DNA of 64,000 bases from Gemmatimonadaceae bacterium (lineage in GTDB: Bacteria > Gemmatimonadota > Gemmatimonadetes > Gemmatimonadales > Gemmatimonadaceae). The notes beneath the pieces were generated by a model. That model was not told the origin of the DNA, did no database searches, and worked only from the letters and a program-made list of their open reading frames with translations. The position numbers and the translations under genes are program-made. The stretch lies in assembly GCA_051859245.1 (NCBI GenBank), contig JBHYGA010000008.1, forward strand, positions 32,001 through 96,000, given 5' to 3'. The first letter of the stretch is position 1. Each line of letters begins with the position of its first letter. Shown in pieces: positions 7,063-63,742 of the stretch.

Positions 7063-7649
7063 GGAAGCGTGTCGGCGCGCATGGTGTCAATGCGCGTGGT
7101 GTCAATGCGCGTGGTGTCAATGCGCATGGTGTCGGGCGGCATGGTGTCAATCGTCATTGGATTGATCGAACGACGACGGTCCGCGAGAATCAAATTCACC
7201 GTTGCGGGCAACTGCACGCGCTCGCCGGGAACGGGAAACGTTTCAAGCACGGTGCCGGTGCGCTCGTCTGATTCACGAAACATGATATCGCCGAGGGTAA
7301 AACCGGCGCGTTCCAGCAAGCGCCGTGCGTCACCTTCCACACGGCCAAGCAGATCGGGTACCACAGCAACGGGCGTGCTCGAGACTTCCACCCCTTCGCC
7401 GCGTCGCGCGGTCTGCGCAGACCCAGCGCGCATGCCGTCTGCTCGAGGGCCGCTGAACGTTTTGCGCGGTGCCGGTTCGTCGATTACCTCGTCTACGACT
7501 TCCGGAATCGGCGTGCGCGAATCTCCTTCAAGAATTCGCAGCGACACAAACCCGCTGGCTGCTCCGAAGATCAGCCCCGCTCCAAGCGCGATGCCGGCGC
7601 GAGAGAGCCAGAGCTTCGTGAGTGGAGACATTTTCTTGTTGGTGCTCAC
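7059..7649 (-). CDS. membrane-anchored PASTA domain protein with repetitive C-terminal tail
   Basis: TM helix; VVPDLLG..EGDARRLLERAGF..G.VLET.PVPG PASTA pattern. Confidence 0.8.
   Translation of the reverse strand: MSTNKKMSPLTKLWLSRAGIALGAGLIFGAASGFVSLRILEGDSRTPIPEVVDEVIDEPAPRKTFSGPRADGMRAGSAQTARRGEGVEVSSTPVAVVPDLLGRVEGDARRLLERAGFTLGDIMFRESDERTGTVLETFPVPGERVQLPATVNLILADRRRSINPMTIDTMPPDTMRIDTTRIDTTRIDTMRADTLP
7066..7155. repeat. six 15-bp tandem units encoding xxDT(M/T/L)
   Basis: RTGGTGTCAATGCGC-like units at 7066, 7081, 7096, 7111, 7126, 7141. Confidence 0.9.
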
Positions 7650-15756: not shown

Positions 15757-17307
15757 GTGGGCACGATTCTTCGGCTGGCCCTGCAGTCGCTGCGCAGTCG
15801 CGCGTTCACCTCGTCGCTCACCGTGGCGAGCATTGCGCTCAGCGTGACGTTGCTCGTGGGCATTGAACATGTGCGTAGCGGCGTGCGCGAAAGTTTTGCG
15901 GGCACCATTCGTGGTGTGGATCTCATCGTTGGTGCGCGCGGTGGATCGCTGCAGGTGTTGCTGTCCACGGTGTTTGGTATTGGTGCGTCGTCCACGGCGA
16001 TCAGCTACGAAACGTACGAGCGCTGGGCCGAACATCCGGCGGTGGCGTGGTCCATTCCGTTTGCGCTTGGCGACAGTCATCGCAGTTATCGCGTGATTGG
16101 CACCACGAACGAGTTTTACGAGCGGTATCGTTTTCGTGAAGACGGGCGCGTGACCTTTGCGGAGGGGCGTGCCGCGGAAACGGATACCGATGTGGTACTT
16201 GGTGCCGAAGTCGCGTCGCGTTTGGGTTACACGCTGGGTTCGCCGATCGTGGTGACGCACGGATTGCAGGGTGGCGGCATCGCGGACCACGAGGCGAATC
16301 CGTTTACGGTGGTGGGTATTTTGAACCGCACGTTCACGCCGATTGATCGCGCGATTTACGTGACGCTCGGTGGTATTGAAGCGATGCACGAGGATTTTGA
16401 GCAGGCGCCGAGTGCGGCGCCTGTGGTGCCGCCGGCGGGGACGCCGAGCATGCCGGGGGCGACGCCGCCGGTGATGCCGGGTGCGGAGCCGCCGCCGGTG
16501 ATGCCTGGCGCTACGCCGCCTGCAATGCCGGGATACGAGCCCCCGCCGGGCACGCCAACCATGCCGGGTGCGACGCCGCCGGTCATGCCGGGTGCAACGC
16601 CGCCGGTCATGCCGGGATATGAGCCGCCACCGGGCACGCCCACGATGCCCGGTGCGCAGCCGCCGGTAGCCTCAGAAGCGCGTCCGACGGCGTCGGTGTC
16701 GAGCGATTCGGCGCCGGCGGCCGACGACGACCACGCCGACCACGATCACGAAGCCGAACAGGTCTCGTCGTTCATGGTGGGGACGAAGAACCGATTCGAG
16801 GCGCTGCAGCTGCAGCGCGAAATGAACACGGATCTGGTGGAGCCAGTCACGGCCATCATTCCCGGCGTCGCACTCGGCGAACTGTGGCAGAACATTTCCA
16901 GCGCCGAAGTCGGCCTGCGCATTGTGGCCATGTTTGCGGTGGCGATTGGCCTCACGGGTATGCTGGTAGCGCTGTACAGCTCACTCGACGCGCGTCGCCG
17001 CGAAATGGCGATTCTGCGCGCGGTTGGCGCGGGTCCGCGCACCATTGTGTCGTTGCTCGTGATTGAATCCGCATTGCTGGCGTTTGTTGGCTGCGTGCTT
17101 GGTGTGTTGTTCGTCTATGCGATTCTCACGCTGGGGCAAGGCGCAATCGAAGCGCGTTCCGGTGTGCATCTTGCGATTCGCGCACTCGGCGCCACTGAGT
17201 GGAAGTATCTCGCGCTCGTGCTTGGCGCCGGCACGCTGATTGGTTTTGTGCCGGCGATCAAGGCGTATCGTATGTCGCTCACGGATGGCTTGAGTCCGCG
17301 CGCCTGA
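15757..17307 (+). CDS. ABC permease (FtsX/MacB-type) with Met/Pro-rich insertion
   Basis: DLIVGARG..LQ.LL..VF, LGDSH, RRREMAILRAVGA; four predicted TM helices. Confidence 0.9.
   Translation: MGTILRLALQSLRSRAFTSSLTVASIALSVTLLVGIEHVRSGVRESFAGTIRGVDLIVGARGGSLQVLLSTVFGIGASSTAISYETYERWAEHPAVAWSIPFALGDSHRSYRVIGTTNEFYERYRFREDGRVTFAEGRAAETDTDVVLGAEVASRLGYTLGSPIVVTHGLQGGGIADHEANPFTVVGILNRTFTPIDRAIYVTLGGIEAMHEDFEQAPSAAPVVPPAGTPSMPGATPPVMPGAEPPPVMPGATPPAMPGYEPPPGTPTMPGATPPVMPGATPPVMPGYEPPPGTPTMPGAQPPVASEARPTASVSSDSAPAADDDHADHDHEAEQVSSFMVGTKNRFEALQLQREMNTDLVEPVTAIIPGVALGELWQNISSAEVGLRIVAMFAVAIGLTGMLVALYSSLDARRREMAILRAVGAGPRTIVSLLVIESALLAFVGCVLGVLFVYAILTLGQGAIEARSGVHLAIRALGATEWKYLALVLGAGTLIGFVPAIKAYRMSLTDGLSPRA
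16450..16668 (+). repeat. eight in-frame MPG(A/Y)xPP repeats inside the permease
   Basis: MPGATPPV, MPGAEPPPV, MPGATPPA, MPGYEPPPGTPT and related units. Confidence 0.9.
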
Positions 17308-19086: not shown

Positions 19087-19106
19087 TAACTGGAGCAGGC
19101 ATAACT

Positions 19107-19204
19107 GCCGGGGCCCGTCGGCGCGCTGCGCCGACGGGCCAAGGGCACGAAGAACACAAAAGGACACGAAAACTGCAACGGCAACAGATTCTGAGGGGAA
19201 CTGC
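19107..19204 (+). repeat. REP-like GC hairpin with AAGGACACGAAAACTGC tail (copy 1)
   Basis: GGCCCGTCGGCGC-GCT-GCGCCGACGGGCC; near-identical copy at 50168. Confidence 0.8.
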
Positions 19205-47001: not shown

Positions 47002-49101
47002 ATGTCTCCTCGTCATTTACGTCCGTCTGCTCCACCTCGCCGTCCCGTCGCGCCGCTGCATCGCGGACCGCAGGCCGCTCCGATTTCTGCCTCCATGAGT
47101 TCGAACGTTGTCGGAGGCGCACCGCCGCATCAGGCGCCCAACGCCGCCATGCTCATCGATTTTGACAACGTCACGATGGGTATTCGCTCCGACCTGCAGG
47201 AAGAGCTCAAGAATCTGCTCTCGTCGGACATCATCAAAGGCAAAGTGGCCGTGCGTCGTGCCTACGCCGACTGGCGCCGCTATCCGCAGTACATCGTGCC
47301 GCTCACCGAAGCGTCGATCGATCTGATCTTTGCACCGGCGTATGGTTCGGCCAAAAAGAACGCCACCGATATTCGACTTGCCATCGACGCGCTTGAGCTC
47401 GTGTTCACGCGTCCTGAAATCGGCACGTTTGTATTGCTCTCCGGCGATTCCGATTTCTCGAGCATGGTGATCAAGCTCAAGGAGTACGGCAAGTACGTGA
47501 TCGGCGTGGGCATTCGCGAATCGTCGAGCGATTTGCTGGTGATGAATTGCGACGAGTACTACTCGTACAACGCACTCGCCGGTCTAGTGCGCAACAGCGA
47601 TGAAGAAGCAGTGCGCTGGGATCCGTGGGAGTTGGTGACGGAAGCCGTGCAGCGCATGAAGCGTAACGGTGATGTCATGCGCTCCGATCGCCTCAAGCAG
47701 GTGATGCAGGAAATCGACGCACAGTTCGACGAGAAAAATCTCGGCATGCCGAAGTTCTCGCGTTTTGTGCAGGAAGCACAGGCGAAGGGTTTGGTGACGG
47801 TCACCAAACTTGAGAACGGACAGCTGGAAATTGGTGTACCGGTGAGCGCAGTCGCGGCGACTGACGCGCCTGTTGCCGTTGCCGGTGTCGCTCCTGTGGA
47901 AGGCGCGGACGTCGAAACGCGTGAAGCACGCGAAGAGCGCGAAGAGCGTCGCGGTGGCCGTCGTGGTCGTCGTGGTCGTGGACGTGATCGTGAGCGTGAG
48001 CCACGTGGTGCGGAAAGCAGTGACGACACGGCGCCTGCCGCGGCCGGTGCAACGGCCGCTGCTGCTCCAGCGGCGCCCGTCGTTGACGCCAGCGCACCGC
48101 TCGGTTCAGTCGCGCGCGTTGGTGCGGTACGCCCGCCGGTTGCGGCGCCTGTTGCCCCAGCTGCTGCCGCACCTGCCGCTGACGCGCCGGTTGTCTCGCC
48201 GCCGCGCGACATGATTCGTGTGTCGCCGGAAAATGATACGATCGGCTTGTCGGGTGAAAAACTCACGCGCGCCGAAGCGTTTGATCTGGTGCAGCGTGCC
48301 GTCGCCTCACTCGTGAAGGGTGTGCAAACGACCACCGCGGTGAAGGTGCGCAAGAAGTCGTTCGAGTTGCTCGGCCGCGACTCCGAAACGCTGGCCGCGC
48401 GCATGTTCGAGCGCATTCTGCGTGACGCGCATGATGCTGACGTGATTGATTTGCGTCGTCGTGGTGATGATTACGAAGTCGGTCGCGTTGCAGAAGCCGC
48501 CACGATTTCCGATCAGCTCGCGAAGAAGGAAGCCGAGATCGTGCAGGAACAGAAGGCGGCCAAGATTGCGAGTGGCACGGCCGGTCCGAGCGGACTTGGC
48601 ACGCGTGGTCGTGCACCGGCGCGCGGTGGATCGCGTGGTGGTCCGCCGCCGGAGTTGTTGATGGTTGGTGTGGTGTCGCAGTCGTCGAGCGCAGCGGCAG
48701 CCGCCGCGGCGAAGCCGGTTGTACCAGCGACACCGGTTGTGGCTGCTCCAGTTGCATCCGCGCCGGTTGCGGCAGCGCCAATCGTTGAAGAGAAGGCCGA
48801 GCCGAAGGTCGACGCGAAGCCTGCGCGTGGTGGCAAGCCCGCAGCCAAGGCTCCGGCCAAGGCTGCAGCGCGCACGGAGCCGCGTACATCGGTGGCAACC
48901 AAGCCAGCCAAGGCAGCCAAGGCTCCGGCCAAGACTGCGGCCAAGGCACCAGCCAAGGCACCAGCCAAAGCACCGGCCAAGACCGCGGCCAAGGCTGCGC
49001 CCAAGCCAGCTGCGAAGTCTCCGGCGAAGGCCGCGGCCAAGCCAGCAAAGTCGGCCGCCAAGGCGCCCGCGAAGAAAGCGGCGAAGAAGGCCGCGAAGTA
49101 G
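47002..49101 (+). CDS. NYN (LabA/DUF88) nuclease with OST-HTH-like domains and Lys/Ala/Pro tail
   Basis: IDFDN, AYADW, KNATD..L.IDA, LSGDSDF; FDEKNLG..KFS; C-terminal AKAPAK repeats; start could be 47095. Confidence 0.88.
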   Translation: MSPRHLRPSAPPRRPVAPLHRGPQAAPISASMSSNVVGGAPPHQAPNAAMLIDFDNVTMGIRSDLQEELKNLLSSDIIKGKVAVRRAYADWRRYPQYIVPLTEASIDLIFAPAYGSAKKNATDIRLAIDALELVFTRPEIGTFVLLSGDSDFSSMVIKLKEYGKYVIGVGIRESSSDLLVMNCDEYYSYNALAGLVRNSDEEAVRWDPWELVTEAVQRMKRNGDVMRSDRLKQVMQEIDAQFDEKNLGMPKFSRFVQEAQAKGLVTVTKLENGQLEIGVPVSAVAATDAPVAVAGVAPVEGADVETREAREEREERRGGRRGRRGRGRDREREPRGAESSDDTAPAAAGATAAAAPAAPVVDASAPLGSVARVGAVRPPVAAPVAPAAAAPAADAPVVSPPRDMIRVSPENDTIGLSGEKLTRAEAFDLVQRAVASLVKGVQTTTAVKVRKKSFELLGRDSETLAARMFERILRDAHDADVIDLRRRGDDYEVGRVAEAATISDQLAKKEAEIVQEQKAAKIASGTAGPSGLGTRGRAPARGGSRGGPPPELLMVGVVSQSSSAAAAAAAKPVVPATPVVAAPVASAPVAAAPIVEEKAEPKVDAKPARGGKPAAKAPAKAAARTEPRTSVATKPAKAAKAPAKTAAKAPAKAPAKAPAKTAAKAAPKPAAKSPAKAAAKPAKSAAKAPAKKAAKKAAK

Positions 49102-49129
49102 TTCGACGCGGTCGCTTCGTTTTGTGCGC

Positions 49130-49178
49130 GAACCGCGCAATACCCCCGGTGTACTTGCCGGGTGGTATTGCGCGGTTC
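49130..49178 (+). terminator. long hairpin after the NYN gene, probable terminator
   Basis: GAACCGCGCAATACC..GGTATTGCGCGGTTC stem followed by CACGTTTT. Confidence 0.6.
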
Positions 49179-49200
49179 CACGTTTTCGCGGTTGCAGTTG

Positions 49201-49416
49201 CTGATGCGTCCATTCGGCCGCTCTGGAAGGAGCTCAGGGCCATTTGGCCTTTCGACAAATCATTTTCGTACGACGGCGTGGAGCACCAGCGCTGGTTGAC
49301 CACCTCGTGGTATTACACAGCCCGACATCGCTGCTGAGTGCACCTTTTCGAAACACGTTCGCCGAACGGCCAAATGGCCCTGGGCTCCTTCCAGAGCGGC
49401 CGAATGGACGAATCAG
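49201..49416. repeat. long-hairpin element, copy A
   Basis: ~54-bp imperfect terminal inverted arms; homologous to 61456-61674. Confidence 0.85.
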
Positions 49417-49531
49417 ACCGCATGTTGACGCAAGTTCGTTTCGTGTAACCGAGAGGCTGTGATGCAGCAGCGGAATCTTGCGTTGATGTTGGCACTCTTT
49501 CTCCCCACGCCCACGCTACACTCGCACTCTG

Positions 49532-50227
49532 GTGCAGGTGAATAATCGCCTCGCACTTCCGCGCGAGTTCTACGATCGCGATGCCGACCTCGTCGCGCGC
49601 GACTTGCTCGGCGCCGAGCTGCGGTTTGCATCGCCCGACGGTGTGACGAGTGGTGTGATCGTGGAGACGGAGGCGTACCTTGGTCCGCACGATCCGGCGT
49701 GTCACGCGGTGGTCGGTCGCACCGCTCGCACCTGGCATCTGTTCGGACCGCCCGGCACGGCCTACGTGTATTTCGTGTACGGCATGCACTGGTGTGTGAA
49801 TGCGGTCACGCGTGAAGACGGGTTCGGTAGTGCCGTACTCATTCGTGCGGTGCAGCCGGTGGAGGGAATTGCGATCATGCGCCAGCGTCGCGTGAAGGCG
49901 CGTCGTGATGTGGACCTGTGCAACGGCCCGGCGAAGTTGTGCGAAGCGTTTGGTATTACGCGGGCGCAGGACGGTGTATCGCTCGTTGAGAGCGAGCTGC
50001 AGATTGGTGCCGGAACGTATGTGCCTGACGCGCAGGTGATTGTGGGTCCACGCGTTGGGATCAGTAAGGCAGTGGACTGGCCGCTGCGGTTTCGGGTTCG
50101 CGCGGATCGCGGGGTAACGGCAACGCCAACTGCAAAAGCCACTGCAAAAGCCACTGCAAAAGCCACAGCCGGGGCCCGTCGGCGCGTTGCACCGACGGGC
50201 CAAGGACACGAAAACAGCAACAGATAA
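49532..50227 (+). CDS. mpg: 3-methyladenine DNA glycosylase (AAG/MPG family)
   Basis: VARDLLG, IVETEAY, YVYFVYGMHWC.N, AVLIRA, NGPAKL, PRVGI. Confidence 0.93.
   Translation: MQVNNRLALPREFYDRDADLVARDLLGAELRFASPDGVTSGVIVETEAYLGPHDPACHAVVGRTARTWHLFGPPGTAYVYFVYGMHWCVNAVTREDGFGSAVLIRAVQPVEGIAIMRQRRVKARRDVDLCNGPAKLCEAFGITRAQDGVSLVESELQIGAGTYVPDAQVIVGPRVGISKAVDWPLRFRVRADRGVTATPTAKATAKATAKATAGARRRVAPTGQGHENSNR
50129..50164 (+). repeat. 3 x ACTGCAAAAGCC tandem repeat
   Basis: Exact 12-bp units at 50129, 50141, 50153. Confidence 0.95.
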
Positions 50228-50270
50228 GGACACGAAAACTGCTTTCGTGTCCTTCCCGCCGCAGTTCCCC
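50168..50270 (+). repeat. REP-like GC hairpin with AAGGACACGAAAAC tail (copy 2)
   Basis: GGCCCGTCGGCGCGTTGCACCGACGGGCC; also hairpin AAGGACACGAAA..TTTCGTGTCCTT at 50226-50254. Confidence 0.8.
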
Positions 50271-50306
50271 CAGCCCTAGGCGAACGCGCGCGACAACGAT
50301 CGAACC

Positions 50307-58751: not shown

Positions 58752-59117
58752 ATGTCACCAGCCAAGAAGGGCGCGCGCAAGAAGACGGCCAAGAAGGCCA
58801 CGCGCAAGACCGCAAAGAAGGCCACGCGTAAGACCGCGAAGAAGGCCGGACGCAAGACGGCGAAGAAGGCCACGCGTAAGACCGCGAAGAAGGCCACTCG
58901 CAAGACTGCAAAGAAGGCCACTCGCAAGACTGCGAAGAAGGCCGCGAAGAAGGCCGGTCGCAAGACCGCCAAGAAGGCCACTCGCAAGACGGCCAAGAAG
59001 GCTGCGAAGAAGGCCGGTCGTAAGAAGACCGCCAAGAAAGCAGCGAAGAAGACCACTCGCCGCAAGACCACGCGGAAGCGCGCGGCGGCCGAAGCACCGG
59101 CTGCGGCTCAGGCGTAA
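58752..59117 (+). CDS. histone H1-like basic repeat protein
   Basis: GAGGAG SD; KTAKKA(T/G)R repeats with synonymous codon variation; terminator downstream. Confidence 0.85.
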   Translation: MSPAKKGARKKTAKKATRKTAKKATRKTAKKAGRKTAKKATRKTAKKATRKTAKKATRKTAKKAAKKAGRKTAKKATRKTAKKAAKKAGRKKTAKKAAKKTTRRKTTRKRAAAEAPAAAQA

Positions 59118-60622: not shown

Positions 60623-61441
60623 GTGCCCGAGTTACCAGAAGTCGAGCGGGCCACGCGATTGCTGCGCAACGCGCTCGAAGGCCGAACACTAATCGACGTG
60701 CGCACGCTGCATCCGTCCGCCGCTCGTTCGTTACCGCACACGGTGGCCCACTCGGTGCTCGGCCACGTCGTGACGGCGGTCACTCGACGCGCCAAATATC
60801 AATTGCTCACACTCGATGACGGGCGCGTGATCGAAGTGCACTTCAAGATGACGGGTGACTGGGCCATTGGTCCGGTGTCGCTTGAACCGCCCCCACTTGA
60901 ACGCGTGCGGCTCATTACGAACGACGGCACGCGCATCTCACTGGTTGACGGCCGAGCGTTTGCGGTGGTGCGTGTGCACGCGGCTGGCGCGGTGTTCTTG
61001 CCGCCGCTCGGGCTGGAGCCGCTTGATCCCGAATGGTCCGGCGCCGTGCTGCGCGACGCACTGTCGCGCAAACGTGGCCCGATCAAACCCGCATTACTGG
61101 ACCAGCAGGTTGTTGCGGGGCTCGGCAATATCTACGCCGCGGAAGCCCTGTGGGAGGCGCGCATTCATCCGCTCGCGCGCGCGAATCGATTGTCGGTGGC
61201 GCGAACCGAGCGGCTTGCTGATGCCGCGAGAGAAGTGCTCGAGCGCGCACCGTCGGCCCGGTACTACGGCAAACGAGCCACGGATAATGGCTATACCTAC
61301 GCGCTTGGCGACGGTGATGACGAATCGTGGAAGGTATACGACCGCGAAGGCGAGCCATGCGCGCGCTGCGGCGCGGTGGTGAAGCGCATGGAGCAGGCGG
61401 GGCGGAGTACGTACTACTGCGGCGGGTGTCAGCGGGTGTAG
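60623..61441 (+). CDS. mutM: formamidopyrimidine-DNA glycosylase
   Basis: PELPEVE, RRAKY, HFKMTG, LLDQ..VAGLGNIY, C-terminal Zn finger. Confidence 0.96.
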   Translation: MPELPEVERATRLLRNALEGRTLIDVRTLHPSAARSLPHTVAHSVLGHVVTAVTRRAKYQLLTLDDGRVIEVHFKMTGDWAIGPVSLEPPPLERVRLITNDGTRISLVDGRAFAVVRVHAAGAVFLPPLGLEPLDPEWSGAVLRDALSRKRGPIKPALLDQQVVAGLGNIYAAEALWEARIHPLARANRLSVARTERLADAAREVLERAPSARYYGKRATDNGYTYALGDGDDESWKVYDREGEPCARCGAVVKRMEQAGRSTYYCGGCQRV

Positions 61442-61455
61442 CAGTTGCCGTTCAA

Positions 61456-61674
61456 TGATTCGGTCATTCGGCCCAGTCGCGGGAGCCCACGGCCATTTGG
61501 CCTTTCGGCCTCGCCGTTTCGTACAGCGGCACACAGCACCAGTGCAATCCATTGAAATCGGTGCGACGCGATTCTTTAACGACGATTCGTACGTTCCGTG
61601 CGGCCTTTCGAAACTGCGAGGCCGAAAGGCCAAATGGCCGTGGGCTCCCGCTACTGGGCCGAATGACCGAATCA
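61456..61674. repeat. long-hairpin element, copy B
   Basis: ~58-bp near-perfect inverted arms between convergent mutM and rlmI-like genes; homologous to 49201-49416. Confidence 0.85.
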
Positions 61675-61709
61675 GAACAGCATGCTAATACAGCGTTCGC
61701 AGCTCGCCG

Positions 61710-62891
61710 CTACCCCACATCCTCCAACAACACGCCCTTCAGGTACCCGGTCTCCGGAATGGTGATCACCTCGGGATGATCAACGCCCTGTCCGGTGACG
61801 GCACGAATCGCGAAACGTCTGCCGCTATCTGCTGCCGCTGCTTGCAGCATCTCCAGAAACATCGCGCGATCCACGTGATGTGAGCAGCTTGCACTGAACA
61901 ACACACCGCCGGGTGCCAGCAACTTCATGGCCTGCACATTCACATCCTTGTAACCGCGCAGTGCACCGTTCAGCGAGGCGCGATTCTTGGCGAATGCTGG
62001 TGGATCCACCACGATCGTTTCAAAACGGCGGCCTTCGCGGTGCCACAGGCGCATGGTATCGAACGCATCGCCCACATGGGTGTGCAGATTGTCGTAACCA
62101 TTCAGCGCGGCGTTCGCTACGGCCCGCTCAAGCGCTGGCGCCGAAATATCGAGCGCCGTGACGTCTGTTGCGTTGCGCGCGAGATGCAGCGCAAACGAAC
62201 CGTGGTACGCAAAACAGTCGAGCGCGCGACCTCGCGCCAGCGAACCAATGAGAACACGATTGTCGCGCTGGTCAAGAAACGCACCCGTCTTCTGACCGTC
62301 CCACGGTGCGGCCAGAAATCGGACCCCATGCTCGACCACTTCAATCGTGCGCGGTACGGTGCCCATAAGCTCCACGGTTTCCCGCGGCAGTCCTTCGCGT
62401 GAACGCACCGCCGGATCATTGCGCGCGAGAATTCCTTCGCACGCCGTGTGCGCGACCAGTGCCGAAATGATCTGTTCACGGCACGCTTCGAGCCCGGCCG
62501 AGAGCAGTTGCACCACCAGCCAGCGATCGTACTGATCGACCACCAGCGACGGCAATCCATCGCCCTCGCCGTGAATGAGGCGACGCGCATTCGTGTGCGC
62601 ACCCACTCCACTGCGGCGAGCGATGGCCGCGCCAATGCGATCGTGCCACCAGGCGGCGTCAACGGTGCGGTCACTCGACGCGTCGATCAGACGCAGTGAA
62701 ATTTCAGATGCCGGACTCCACAAGGCCTGGCCAAGCGGTCGACCGTTCGACGCTTGCATGCGCACCACGCCGGCCGCCACTGTAGGTGCGGCCAGCACAT
62801 CACTCTTGAAGATCCACGGATGGCCGTGCGACAATCGTTGTTCGGCGCGTTTGTTCACTGTCGCCACCGACGGAAGATTCGGTCGGTTCAC
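61710..62891 (-). CDS. RlmI-like SAM-dependent rRNA methyltransferase
   Basis: GHPWIF PUA domain, GQKTGAFLDQRDNR, DPPAF, SCSHH, PET.YLK; GTGA overlap. Confidence 0.9.
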   Translation of the reverse strand: MNRPNLPSVATVNKRAEQRLSHGHPWIFKSDVLAAPTVAAGVVRMQASNGRPLGQALWSPASEISLRLIDASSDRTVDAAWWHDRIGAAIARRSGVGAHTNARRLIHGEGDGLPSLVVDQYDRWLVVQLLSAGLEACREQIISALVAHTACEGILARNDPAVRSREGLPRETVELMGTVPRTIEVVEHGVRFLAAPWDGQKTGAFLDQRDNRVLIGSLARGRALDCFAYHGSFALHLARNATDVTALDISAPALERAVANAALNGYDNLHTHVGDAFDTMRLWHREGRRFETIVVDPPAFAKNRASLNGALRGYKDVNVQAMKLLAPGGVLFSASCSHHVDRAMFLEMLQAAAADSGRRFAIRAVTGQGVDHPEVITIPETGYLKGVLLEDVG

Positions 62892-63742
62892 GCGGGGACC
62901 GACGAACGAAAAGACGGTGTGGCAGTCACAGAAGTCGGATTGTTCAGTCCCAGTTCGCACCAGGTGGCACGAGTTGAGAGTGTGTGTTGAAGGATCGCCT
63001 GATTGCGCGGGAGCGCTGCACGCGGTTGTTCAGGATGCCACAGGTGCCATGCTGCCGCGGCCAACTTTCGGGAGGCGCGTCGCACTCCGGTGTGCTGGAG
63101 ACGCGCGACAAACTCACTGTCTTCACGACCCCATCCGGTGATGGCTTCATTGAATCCGTTCACGCGCACGGCGTCGTCGCGCCAGAACCCCATGTGACAT
63201 CCGCGAATGCCACGTTCCGGATCATTGGGTACGCGCGCGAAGAGTGGCGTGAGCATGGGCACGTACCAACCGTTGGCACGATTGCGCACCTCGCGTTCAA
63301 ACGGGCCCACCCACGCACGCCCTGTTTGCAACAGCTGCTGCGTAAGCTGCGGCCCGATCAGTGCCCGACTGCCCTGCACAAACTCGCCGCGCCGCGCGCG
63401 GGTGATGTGTGCGCGCATGGCTTCAGGATGCAACAGGATATCGCCGTCGAGCTGCACGATATAGTCGCACTGCGTGGCACTGATGGCGCGATTGCGAATG
63501 GCACCGAGCCGAAACCCTTCGTCCGCGTGCCACACGTGTCGCAGTGGCACCGGAAAATCGTGCGCCTGCGCATCCACAAGTTCGGCCGTTTCGACTCCCG
63601 ATCCATCATCCGCAATGATCACTTCCGTGGGCAGCAACGACTGCCTGCGCAGCGCCGTGAGCACGAGCGACAGCGCGGCGGGCCAGTTGTACGTGGCCAC
63701 GATCACTGCACACGACGGCAGCCCCGAGCGGGAAGCGCTCAC
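62888..63742 (-). CDS. glycosyltransferase family 2
   Basis: ATYNWP, IADDGS, RNRA, DGD, VNGFNE...WGREDSE. Confidence 0.92.
   Translation of the reverse strand: MSASRSGLPSCAVIVATYNWPAALSLVLTALRRQSLLPTEVIIADDGSGVETAELVDAQAHDFPVPLRHVWHADEGFRLGAIRNRAISATQCDYIVQLDGDILLHPEAMRAHITRARRGEFVQGSRALIGPQLTQQLLQTGRAWVGPFEREVRNRANGWYVPMLTPLFARVPNDPERGIRGCHMGFWRDDAVRVNGFNEAITGWGREDSEFVARLQHTGVRRASRKLAAAAWHLWHPEQPRAALPRNQAILQHTLSTRATWCELGLNNPTSVTATPSFRSSVPA

Follow-up and report, generated by a model that had tools for sequence, protein, structure and literature searches.

Two long-hairpin repeats in a Gemmatimonadaceae genome, probable gene-less copies of a repeat that brackets a PF05635 gene

Short palindromic repeats of several kinds are dispersed in bacterial genomes. 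Correia, ERIC and Nezha belong to the MITE (miniature inverted-repeat transposable element) or foldback families, which are non-autonomous, and bacterial interspersed mosaic elements (BIMEs) are mosaics of repetitive extragenic palindromic (REP) units in alternating orientation. In the system formed by REP doublets (REPINs) and their REP-associated tyrosine transposase (RAYT), two reports (PMC3116915; bioRxiv 10.1101/2021.07.10.451892) describe a single-copy gene flanked by its repeats, paralogue-specific families, compensatory changes and slow vertical dynamics. Intervening sequences (IVSs) of 23S rRNA that carry an S23p open reading frame (ORF) have been described as selfish elements, in which RNase III cuts the terminal inverted repeats (PMC4990558). 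The S23p family, PF05635, resembles Avd, a protein of diversity-generating retroelements (DGRs) that works on structured nucleic acid beside its own gene (PMC10053308) and acts together with a reverse transcriptase (bioRxiv 10.1101/2023.10.23.563531). Here we describe a family of long hairpin repeats represented by two copies, A and B, in a 64,000-nt stretch of DNA from a Gemmatimonadaceae bacterium (hereafter the window; assembly GCA_051859245.1, contig JBHYGA010000008.1; G000:C8:32001-96000, where G000 is the source genome; G, C and L numbers denote genomes, contigs and loci, and coordinates without a contig are those of the window). A and B are probably gene-less copies of a hairpin repeat that encloses the only PF05635 gene of this genome, which codes for an S23p/Avd-like four-helix bundle.

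A profile search of G000 (4.70 Mb in 11 contigs, 62% G+C, 99.87% complete) gave a single PF05635 match, at C1:950774-951085, and this gene is enclosed by two elements of the family, C1:950455-950691 and C1:951127-951371, whose arms lie in - and + orientation (flank inverted-repeat scores of 105 and 77). The product, P0001, is encoded by a 127-residue ORF on the strand opposite to clpX and clpP and matches PF05635 (23S_rRNA_IVP; E = 1.4e-28), TIGR02436 ('four helix bundle protein') and PDB 2GSC (E = 2e-12). Gene and repeat overlap: the TGA stop of P0001 lies inside the element end CTGATTCGG, and its last ~8 codons are the type-2 end found in solo copies such as A. On one side the gene is neighboured by ClpX, on the other by ClpP and trigger factor, with no transposase. 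The same order of clpX, element, gene, element and clpP is found in G002, G008 and G014, and arms were detected on one side only of the corresponding bracket in G006 and G007. Because the clpX-clpP spacer measures 1,049 nt in G000 versus 121, 165 and 166 nt in G012, G005 and G013, the bracket behaves as one unit, present or missing in its entirety between the clpP terminator and the clpX leader, and it has been gained or lost as such. Comparison of the P0001 gene between G000 and G002 indicates purifying selection (dN 0.042, dS 0.69, dN/dS 0.06); identity of P0001 is 68-74% in G006, G007, G008 and G014, where that of ClpX is 95-97%.

The gene-bearing locus is a small, self-contained cassette, hairpin-gene-hairpin, which was probably inserted between clpX and clpP and which probably represents the same kind of package as the ORF-carrying IVSs of 23S rRNA, although outside rRNA. 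The likeness lies in the ORF family at the gene-bearing locus (PF05635, TIGR02436; A and B carry no ORF), in inverted repeats that form a long stem round the ORF, and in being self-contained without a transposase. Unlike the IVSs, which sit in helix 25 or 45, the cassette occupies clpX-clpP and other protein-gene spacers, has a full hairpin of ~245 nt on each side, and is accompanied by ~25 gene-less copies in the genome. By analogy with IVS stems, the ~80-bp stems might, if transcribed, be RNase III substrates.

An arm-core pattern search of the whole G000 assembly located 51 arms, which correspond to ~27 copies of the family, ~25 of them gene-less. The arms comprise 17 intact convergent pairs, 14 arms at contig ends, one divergent pair with its outer ends facing (C5:97964/98026) and one truncated copy (C4:9239); a ~75-nt remnant with an internal deletion lies near C4:832,7xx. 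The contig-end arms sort into seven pairs via identical 8-nt boxes, and one of these, C2 start with C5 start, is likewise divergent. As many as 14 of the 22 contig ends of the assembly fall inside an arm, probably because the arms are perfect beyond the assembler word length. Each arm consists of the invariant blocks GATTCGG, CATTCGGCC, GGAGCCCA, GGCCATTTGGCCTTTCGGCCTC and TTTCG, broken by a box of 8-9 nt that differs from element to element; the core blocks are invariant or nearly so across 66 arms of G000 and G002. The centre combines a conserved asymmetric inner module with a variable apex. In the alignment of all copies, similarity reaches GTTGCAGTTCCTGATTCGG on one side and ...CCGAATCAGACTGCATG plus ~15 nt on the other, and there are two alternative kinds of end, type 1 (GTTGCAGTTCCTGATTCGG) and type 2 (GACTCGC.TCAACATGCAGTCTGATTCGG); chimeric copies exist with one arm from each subtype. 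The parts of A and B are as follows.

49191..49436, no strand: copy A, full element of ~246 nt, with its type-1 end left and type-2 end right (from the alignment of all copies)
49191..49268, + strand: left arm of A, containing GATGCGTC, CATTCGGCC, the box GCTCTGGAA (49220-49228) and GGAGCTCAGGGCCATTTGGCCTTTCG
49269..49348, no strand: centre of A, the conserved asymmetric inner module, formed by TTTCGTACGACGGC...GAGCAC and, across the variable apex, GTGCA..TTTTCGAAAC
49349..49436, - strand: right arm of A, with the box complement TTCCAGAGC (49389-49397) and the type-2 end extending to ~49436
61441..61688, no strand: copy B, full element of ~248 nt, between convergent genes
61441..61532, + strand: left arm of B, with the box CAGTCGCG at 61474-61481
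61533..61597, no strand: centre of B, inverted in orientation in the orthologous G002 copy
61598..61688, - strand: right arm of B, with the box complement CGCTACTG at 61649-61656 and a type-2 end

The anchors CATTCGGCC lie at 49211 (+) and 49406 (-) in A and at 61465 (+) and 61665 (-) in B, and the first base of B is the last base of the stop codon of the formamidopyrimidine-DNA glycosylase (Fpg) gene. The two copies align with a mean column identity of 77%, and each, taken as RNA, is predicted to fold as a single long hairpin (A: -140 kcal/mol, z -12.8; B: -173.8 kcal/mol, z -19.2; as good in 0 of 200 shuffles in both cases), with inverted arms of 68 nt that are 87% complementary in A and of 77 nt that are 92% complementary in B. 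An earlier note, made from the letters of the window, had described two hairpin copies with shared motifs and covarying blocks and without an ORF of note, and these observations hold. Its extent of ~217 nt was too short by ~30 nt, and what it took for asymmetric flanking DNA turned out to be the two kinds of element end. The note had also suspected an undescribed family and proposed a search for further copies in this genome and its relatives, which yielded the 51 arms above and matches in most genomes of the genus (see below). We found no description in the open literature of these arm motifs or of Gemmatimonas repeats, nor of dispersed hairpin families tied to PF05635 genes, subscription journals lying outside this coverage. 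In the window, Rfam gave no match in gathering mode, a match to a known family being what the note had named as the finding that would speak against a new one; the best results in E-value mode had E values of 0.18 and 0.23, with 19.6 and 12.7 bits versus gathering scores of 80 and 82.

Of the 15 genomes of the genus, 14 contain PF05635 genes, with one to three copies each, and by identity to P0001 these genes form two groups, namely clade I (51-100%; 14 loci) and clade II (~36-51%; 9 loci, 7 of them scored). When each 350-nt flank was scored by its best local alignment to its own reverse complement (cut-off 25), long inverted repeats were found on both sides of 8 of the 14 clade I genes and on at least one side of 10, compared with 0 of 40 distal control windows; a repeat search and the arm model R1 (built from the 66 arms) add weaker brackets at L237, L238 and L251. 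The bracketed genes have housekeeping neighbours at six or more different loci, with no transposase nearby. Besides the clpX-clpP spacer, these loci include the following.

G005: bracketed gene between YCII and IscU; the YCII gene also adjoins in G013
G011 and G009: bracketed gene between H+-PPase and YchF
G012: bracketed gene between a helix-turn-helix protein and aminopeptidase P
G009: bracketed gene beside a PaaA-family gene
G013: bracketed gene between a kinase and a thiolase

The bracket hairpins outside clpX-clpP fold into long hairpins (-104 to -220 kcal/mol) and have no sequence in common with the G000 family. The hairpin bracketing the G005 gene has 46 matches in G005 and at most one in any other genome, that of G012-C46 has 113 matches in G012 and none in the other 14 genomes, and that of G013 has 24 matches in G013 and two in G005; these three tested non-syntenic bracket hairpins are members of species-specific dispersed families. 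Moreover, the two hairpins around the same gene are alike (scores of 56-155 at nine loci), whereas those around paralogues in one genome are unlike (scores of 12-23, compared within G009, G011, G012 and G013). G012 possesses two clade I genes and two families, one R1-like with 19 arm matches and the other the C46 family. Related PF05635 genes of the genus each carry their own hairpin pair. The PF05635 protein may recognise the arms of its own family in folded or duplex form, and these may depend on it for persistence or rare copying. As a separate observation, the G005 family (L262, L263, L245) ends in GCAGTTGAACCC...GGGTTCAACTGC; the terminal GCAGTTG is common to the type-1 end of G000 and the rest differs, so this heptamer may be a conserved terminal signal.

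Several observations weigh against a partnership between these proteins and their repeats. Outside clade I, inverted repeats were seen at one of the seven scored clade II loci, the other six being without them, and within clade I L250 lacks a bracket and L237, L242 and L251 fall below the cut-off on both sides. In a phylum-wide sample made up of the best PF05635 matches, hairpins on both sides were found at 0 of 29 loci and on one side at 1 of 29 (control 1 of 54), and for P0001-like genes in other genera of the family the figures are 1 of 25 for both sides and 6 of 25 for at least one side (control 1 of 49), L277, L318 and L319 being left out of both counts. The clpX-clpP bracket in six species represents one inherited event, not six. 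At L170 in G002 (G002:C68:4719-6307), a 226-residue Uma2-family (PF05685) gene lies at 194-1395 between two same-orientation copies of the repeat, and the G000 counterpart is a single copy at C5:184444-184685; the Uma2 gene was either lost by copy-copy recombination or gained together with a duplicated copy. A bracket alone is therefore no proof of partnership, because a Uma2 gene is bracketed too and recombination between copies can add or remove a gene. No new insertion is seen between G000 and G002 (21 G002 elements) over a synonymous divergence of 0.69, and the whole-arm identity of orthologous copies, 0.83-0.84, is not above that of coding flanks, the core blocks alone exceeding it. The link between protein and repeat is correlational, and to our knowledge no binding, cleavage or copying activity has been reported for the PF05635 protein family.

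The age and turnover of the family can be followed among congeners. G002 shares 77-95% nucleotide identity with G000 in 200-400-nt flanks, and the synonymous divergence between them is 0.69 at the PF05635 gene. It contains at least 21 elements, and all 21 are at sites also occupied in G000, where 13 are intact copies, 6 are contig ends in arms, 1 is a truncated copy and 1 is a deleted remnant. At the B site, which is filled in G000 and G002, the spacer is 273 nt long in G000 versus 49, 58, 98 and 91 nt in G005, G006, G008 and G014, where the site is empty; at 12 loci of G006-G009 and G014 corresponding to the A and B sites, the arm model found no arm. Empty sites, which the earlier note had proposed to look for, therefore do exist, although the congener spacers are too diverged to place exact insertion borders. 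Both window sites became occupied in the lineage that comprises G000 and G002. Across the genus, R1 matches 12 of the 15 genomes, with scores far lower outside G000 and G002 (42 matches in G008, 39 in G007, 35 in G014 and 19 in G012), and is without a match in G003 (64% complete), G005 and G013; divergent arm pairs and alternating arrays occur in G008, G014 and G007. A family-wide R1 scan gave matches in 4 of 151 genomes, with only 26 candidates scored per genome. In a third organism, X4, a 149-nt contig has 5 letters different from the interior of copy A, and a 7.4-kb contig differs from the genes neighbouring A at 532 of 5,934 letters. Exact arm patterns gave no match in metagenome_contigs (two specific patterns) or in viral_contigs (one pattern), and a degenerate pattern in genome_contigs, most matches of which are due to chance, found intact arm pairs only in records titled as Gemmatimonadaceae metagenome-assembled genomes.

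The solo hairpins are a slow-turnover, vertically inherited population, as are REPINs around a RAYT gene. Both systems consist of dispersed intergenic hairpins in which two inverted conserved units surround a less conserved spacer and compensatory changes are common, and in both duplication is very slow and inheritance vertical. By analogy only, they also share a single-copy gene flanked by its own repeats and paralogue-specific families, the gene here being PF05635. Unlike REPIN-RAYT, the partner is a 127-residue PF05635 four-helix bundle and not a HUH Y1 transposase, the arms are ~100 nt long compared with 20-40 nt for REPs, there is no GTAG/CGTC tag, and the gene is flanked by two complete hairpins. 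The earlier note had proposed to look for an associated HUH/RAYT transposase, and none was found: Y1_Tnp (PF01797) has no match in the 99.87%-complete G000, while the control search matched 6 of 14 genomes. Its alternative of a REPIN-like element or a structured RNA is borne out on the REPIN side, by population behaviour and the one flanked single-copy gene, and not on the RNA side, where neither a wobble bias nor a stable centre orientation points to selection on an RNA fold. As for the DGR comparison, Avd belongs to the same protein superfamily as P0001. Unlike in DGRs, box variation extends beyond adenines and the reverse transcriptase profile RVT_1 has no match in G000. A DGR-like adenine mutagenesis of the box was accordingly rejected, variation being found at all base types and no reverse transcriptase being present.

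Two sets of observations from elsewhere in the phylum are recorded here. In other Gemmatimonadota, the 8-nt unit GGCCGAAT / GGCCGTAT is repeated in tandem to form the two mirror-image arms of intergenic hairpins (L190, L193, L196, L199, L205 and L207 in G018; L084, L091, L100 and L117); those of G018 have a conserved apex GGCCGTAGTG.CGTAAACGGCGTTTGTAGTTTTCGGCC, and the G000 arms have the same octamer periodicity. One strong arm match (71.6 bits), with one arm only, comes from a genome of a different genus; it lies on a 1.8-kb contig (G068:C482:1134-1225, L189) and may result from mis-binning, the contamination of that assembly being 6%.

Among the alternatives, a host-serving element of the BIME or REP type would be kept by host selection, for example because it binds a protein, stabilises transcript ends or terminates transcription, and the PF05635 gene would merely tend to settle next to such hairpins. 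It would account for the conservation of the core blocks over the synonymous divergence of 0.69 and for the full sharing of sites with G002 (21/21), and the alternating-orientation arrays in G014 and the divergent pairs are as in BIMEs. The arm behaves as a unit that can be placed in pairs, either convergent or divergent, or in alternating arrays with two linker types, although, unlike in BIMEs, the units are four to five times longer and a partner gene is present. On a crude gene call, which makes the counts rough, the copies lie in convergent, tandem and divergent contexts; many adjoin the 3' end of a gene and five or six merge with a terminator T-run, and these last two features would also suit such a role. 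However, in sister species the family is missing or replaced by unrelated sequences at the same sites, and therefore has no fixed host role there; outside the elements there is no enrichment of the octamer ATTCGGCC (246 occurrences observed versus 211 expected, with 67 inside elements), for which reason an uptake-signal or Chi-like role was also rejected; and the possession of its own pair by each PF05635 paralogue is left unexplained. We consider a host-serving element unlikely.

Several arrangements of the copies deserve mention in their own right. In several copies the type-1 end merges with the T-run of a hairpin resembling an intrinsic terminator (..CCGCCGTTTTGCTTTTCTGATTCGG), namely at C1:951349, C5:62659, C6:315547 and C11:12259 in G000 and at L173, L177 and L185 in G002; together with the abutment of the bracket on the clpP terminator, these fusions suggest an insertion preference for terminators. 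Inside-out pairs, with outer ends facing over 20-60 nt, are present at G000:C5:97880-98110, at the C5 start/C2 start, at L179 and L180 (G002) and at L232, L220 and L226. This arrangement is the same as that which encloses the PF05635 gene at the master locus, and inside-out pairs may be cassettes minus their gene.

An ordinary MITE family, i.e., deletion derivatives of a lost or unassembled insertion sequence (IS) of the DDE type between two copies of which the PF05635 gene came to lie incidentally, is in our view improbable to a slightly greater degree. The elements resemble MITEs and foldback sequences in being short, non-coding, dispersed, intergenic, multi-copy and clustered, with long terminal inverted repeats, conserved termini, alternative end types and chimeric copies, and there is presence/absence polymorphism between relatives at genus scale (the B site), though none between G000 and G002. 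Since 14 contig ends fall within arms, some interiors are also unseen (seven, all at contig breaks). Against this, nearly all sites are common to G000 and G002 over the synonymous divergence of 0.69, and target-site duplications are lacking, as the earlier note had stated, direct repeats being no more frequent at any flank offset than with permuted partners (k = 2-8, n = 36 elements). Nor was a transposase-bearing parent IS found: in a search of G000 with four mobility profiles (PF01797, PF01609, PF00665 and PF00078, covering three transposase families and RVT_1), DDE_Tnp_1 (PF01609), Y1_Tnp and RVT_1 had no match, and the single rve locus (C5:214996-215753) lies far away from all arms. Every one of the 51 arms can be assigned to a short element or a contig-end pair, and segments of 1-3 kb are not enclosed by any pair. 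A MITE origin would also leave unexplained the unrelated hairpin families that bracket PF05635 genes in G005, G012 and G013.

How the two arms of a copy remain complementary was examined in 34 full copies from G000 and G002, using an RNAalifold structure with 62 pairs. Changes on both sides were found in 21 of the 62 stem pairs, compared with 7.3 +/- 1.6 in 500 shuffles, none of which reached 21, and slid controls, in which partners were moved by 1-3 columns, gave 5-7 two-sided pairs. The claim of the earlier note that pairing is kept where the copies differ is hence sound for the family as a whole; the box pair of B, CAGTCGCG / CGCTACTG, has one mismatch between left and right. Mismatch between the boxes of one element is 0.1-0.2 versus 0.4-0.6 expected for random arm pairs; the boxes match perfectly in 14 of 24 G000 arm pairs, with 14 distinct box sequences, and four further pairs, B among them, differ at one position. 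Orthologous copies may nevertheless differ strongly in both boxes, that of A being GCTCTGGAA in G000 and GAGTAGCG in G002.

Among non-Watson-Crick cells in genome orientation there are 78 G-T, 91 A-C and 222 others, many of the last stemming from type-1 and type-2 ends being aligned with each other. In centre-defined orientation the counts are 51 G-U, 32 A-C and 45 others, and without one polymorphic inner pair G-U and A-C stand at 36 versus 32. For 13 orthologous G000/G002 pairs, the centre fits best in the same orientation in five, inverted in four and in neither in four; the inverted ones include B (0.67 vs 0.57) and C5:62466 (0.82 vs 0.51), and A is among those that fit neither. Given the lack of a G-U bias and the four inverted centres among the 13 orthologous pairs, the complementarity is best attributed to arm recombination at the DNA level and not to RNA selection. 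Recombination takes place between the two arms of a copy, and there is no sign of selection on the hairpin as an RNA fold. Complementarity is probably kept mainly by gene conversion during arm-to-arm recombination, at times between copies, which would act on the freely varying box, while the remaining arm blocks would be under sequence-specific constraint. The centre inversions might also have pointed to an invertible promoter, a reading that was dropped as a scan for sigma-70-like sites found none in or beside A and B.

A structured non-coding RNA family, whose long hairpin would be held by selection on the RNA fold, is very unlikely in spite of the very stable predicted hairpins, the significant covariation (21/62 pairs, 0/500 shuffles), an inner pair that in centre-defined orientation is G-C in 15 copies and G-U in another 15 but never A-C, and the action of IVS stems at the RNA level (PMC4990558), since the family has no Rfam match, G-U is not in excess over A-C in the arms (78 vs 91, or 36 vs 32 as above), the centre flips relative to the ends and flanking genes, copies occur, on the crude gene call, in convergent, tandem and divergent contexts alike, and A and B have no sigma-70-like promoter.

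The immediate neighbourhood of A and B contains the following features.

47002..49101, + strand: NYN-domain protein with an AKPA-repeat tail, upstream of A
49121..49178, + strand: separate hairpin followed by a T-run, just 5' of copy A, conserved in G002
49532..50227, + strand: methylpurine-DNA glycosylase, downstream of A
60623..61441, + strand: Fpg, upstream of B
61710..62960, - strand: PUA and S-adenosylmethionine-dependent methyltransferase, downstream of B and convergent

The hairpin at 49121..49178 looks like the terminator of the upstream NYN-domain gene; it was read by eye and is unlisted in the consensus terminator scan. Other repeats were also observed in the window. Coding repeats with periods of 12 and 24 nt at 48830-49102 and 58758-59033 specify AKPA/KKA-rich, histone-H1-like tails, the former being the tail of the NYN-domain protein 5' of A and the latter lying within a 121-residue ORF. 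A second small repeat family has two copies that are 85% alike (50149-50291 and 19104-19176), in which units of the AAGGACACGAAAAC type come after a GC-rich hairpin (GGCCCGTCGGCGCG..CGACGGGCC), with many short matches over G002 contigs. A 15-nt tandem repeat, GTGTCAATGCGCGTG, occurs in five copies at 7069-7166, and an 84-nt coding repeat, proline-rich-looking, in three copies at 16439-16657.

With A and B probably being gene-less copies of the repeat that brackets the PF05635 gene, a broader proposal can be put forward more tentatively, and we regard it as possible though doubtful: S23p four-helix-bundle proteins may be specificity factors of long-lived intragenomic replicators, each keeping and rarely copying its own hairpin family without a classical transposase, so that the IVSs of 23S rRNA would be one landing site and many unexplained palindromic intergenic repeats would be gene-less offspring. 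On the practical side, 14 of the 22 contig ends in the source assembly are probably due to perfect arms that exceed the assembler word size. The family also offers a worked example in which gene conversion between the inverted repeats accounts for convincing 'compensatory substitutions' better than does selection on an RNA fold. The genus may be considered a natural experiment, in which paralogues each with a hairpin family, species lacking one pair or the other, sites with and without a copy, and an isolate-grade genome that is nearly closed are found together. If correct, the proposal would join two puzzles, namely the role of S23p/Avd-like IVS proteins and the origin of lineage-specific long palindromic intergenic repeats.

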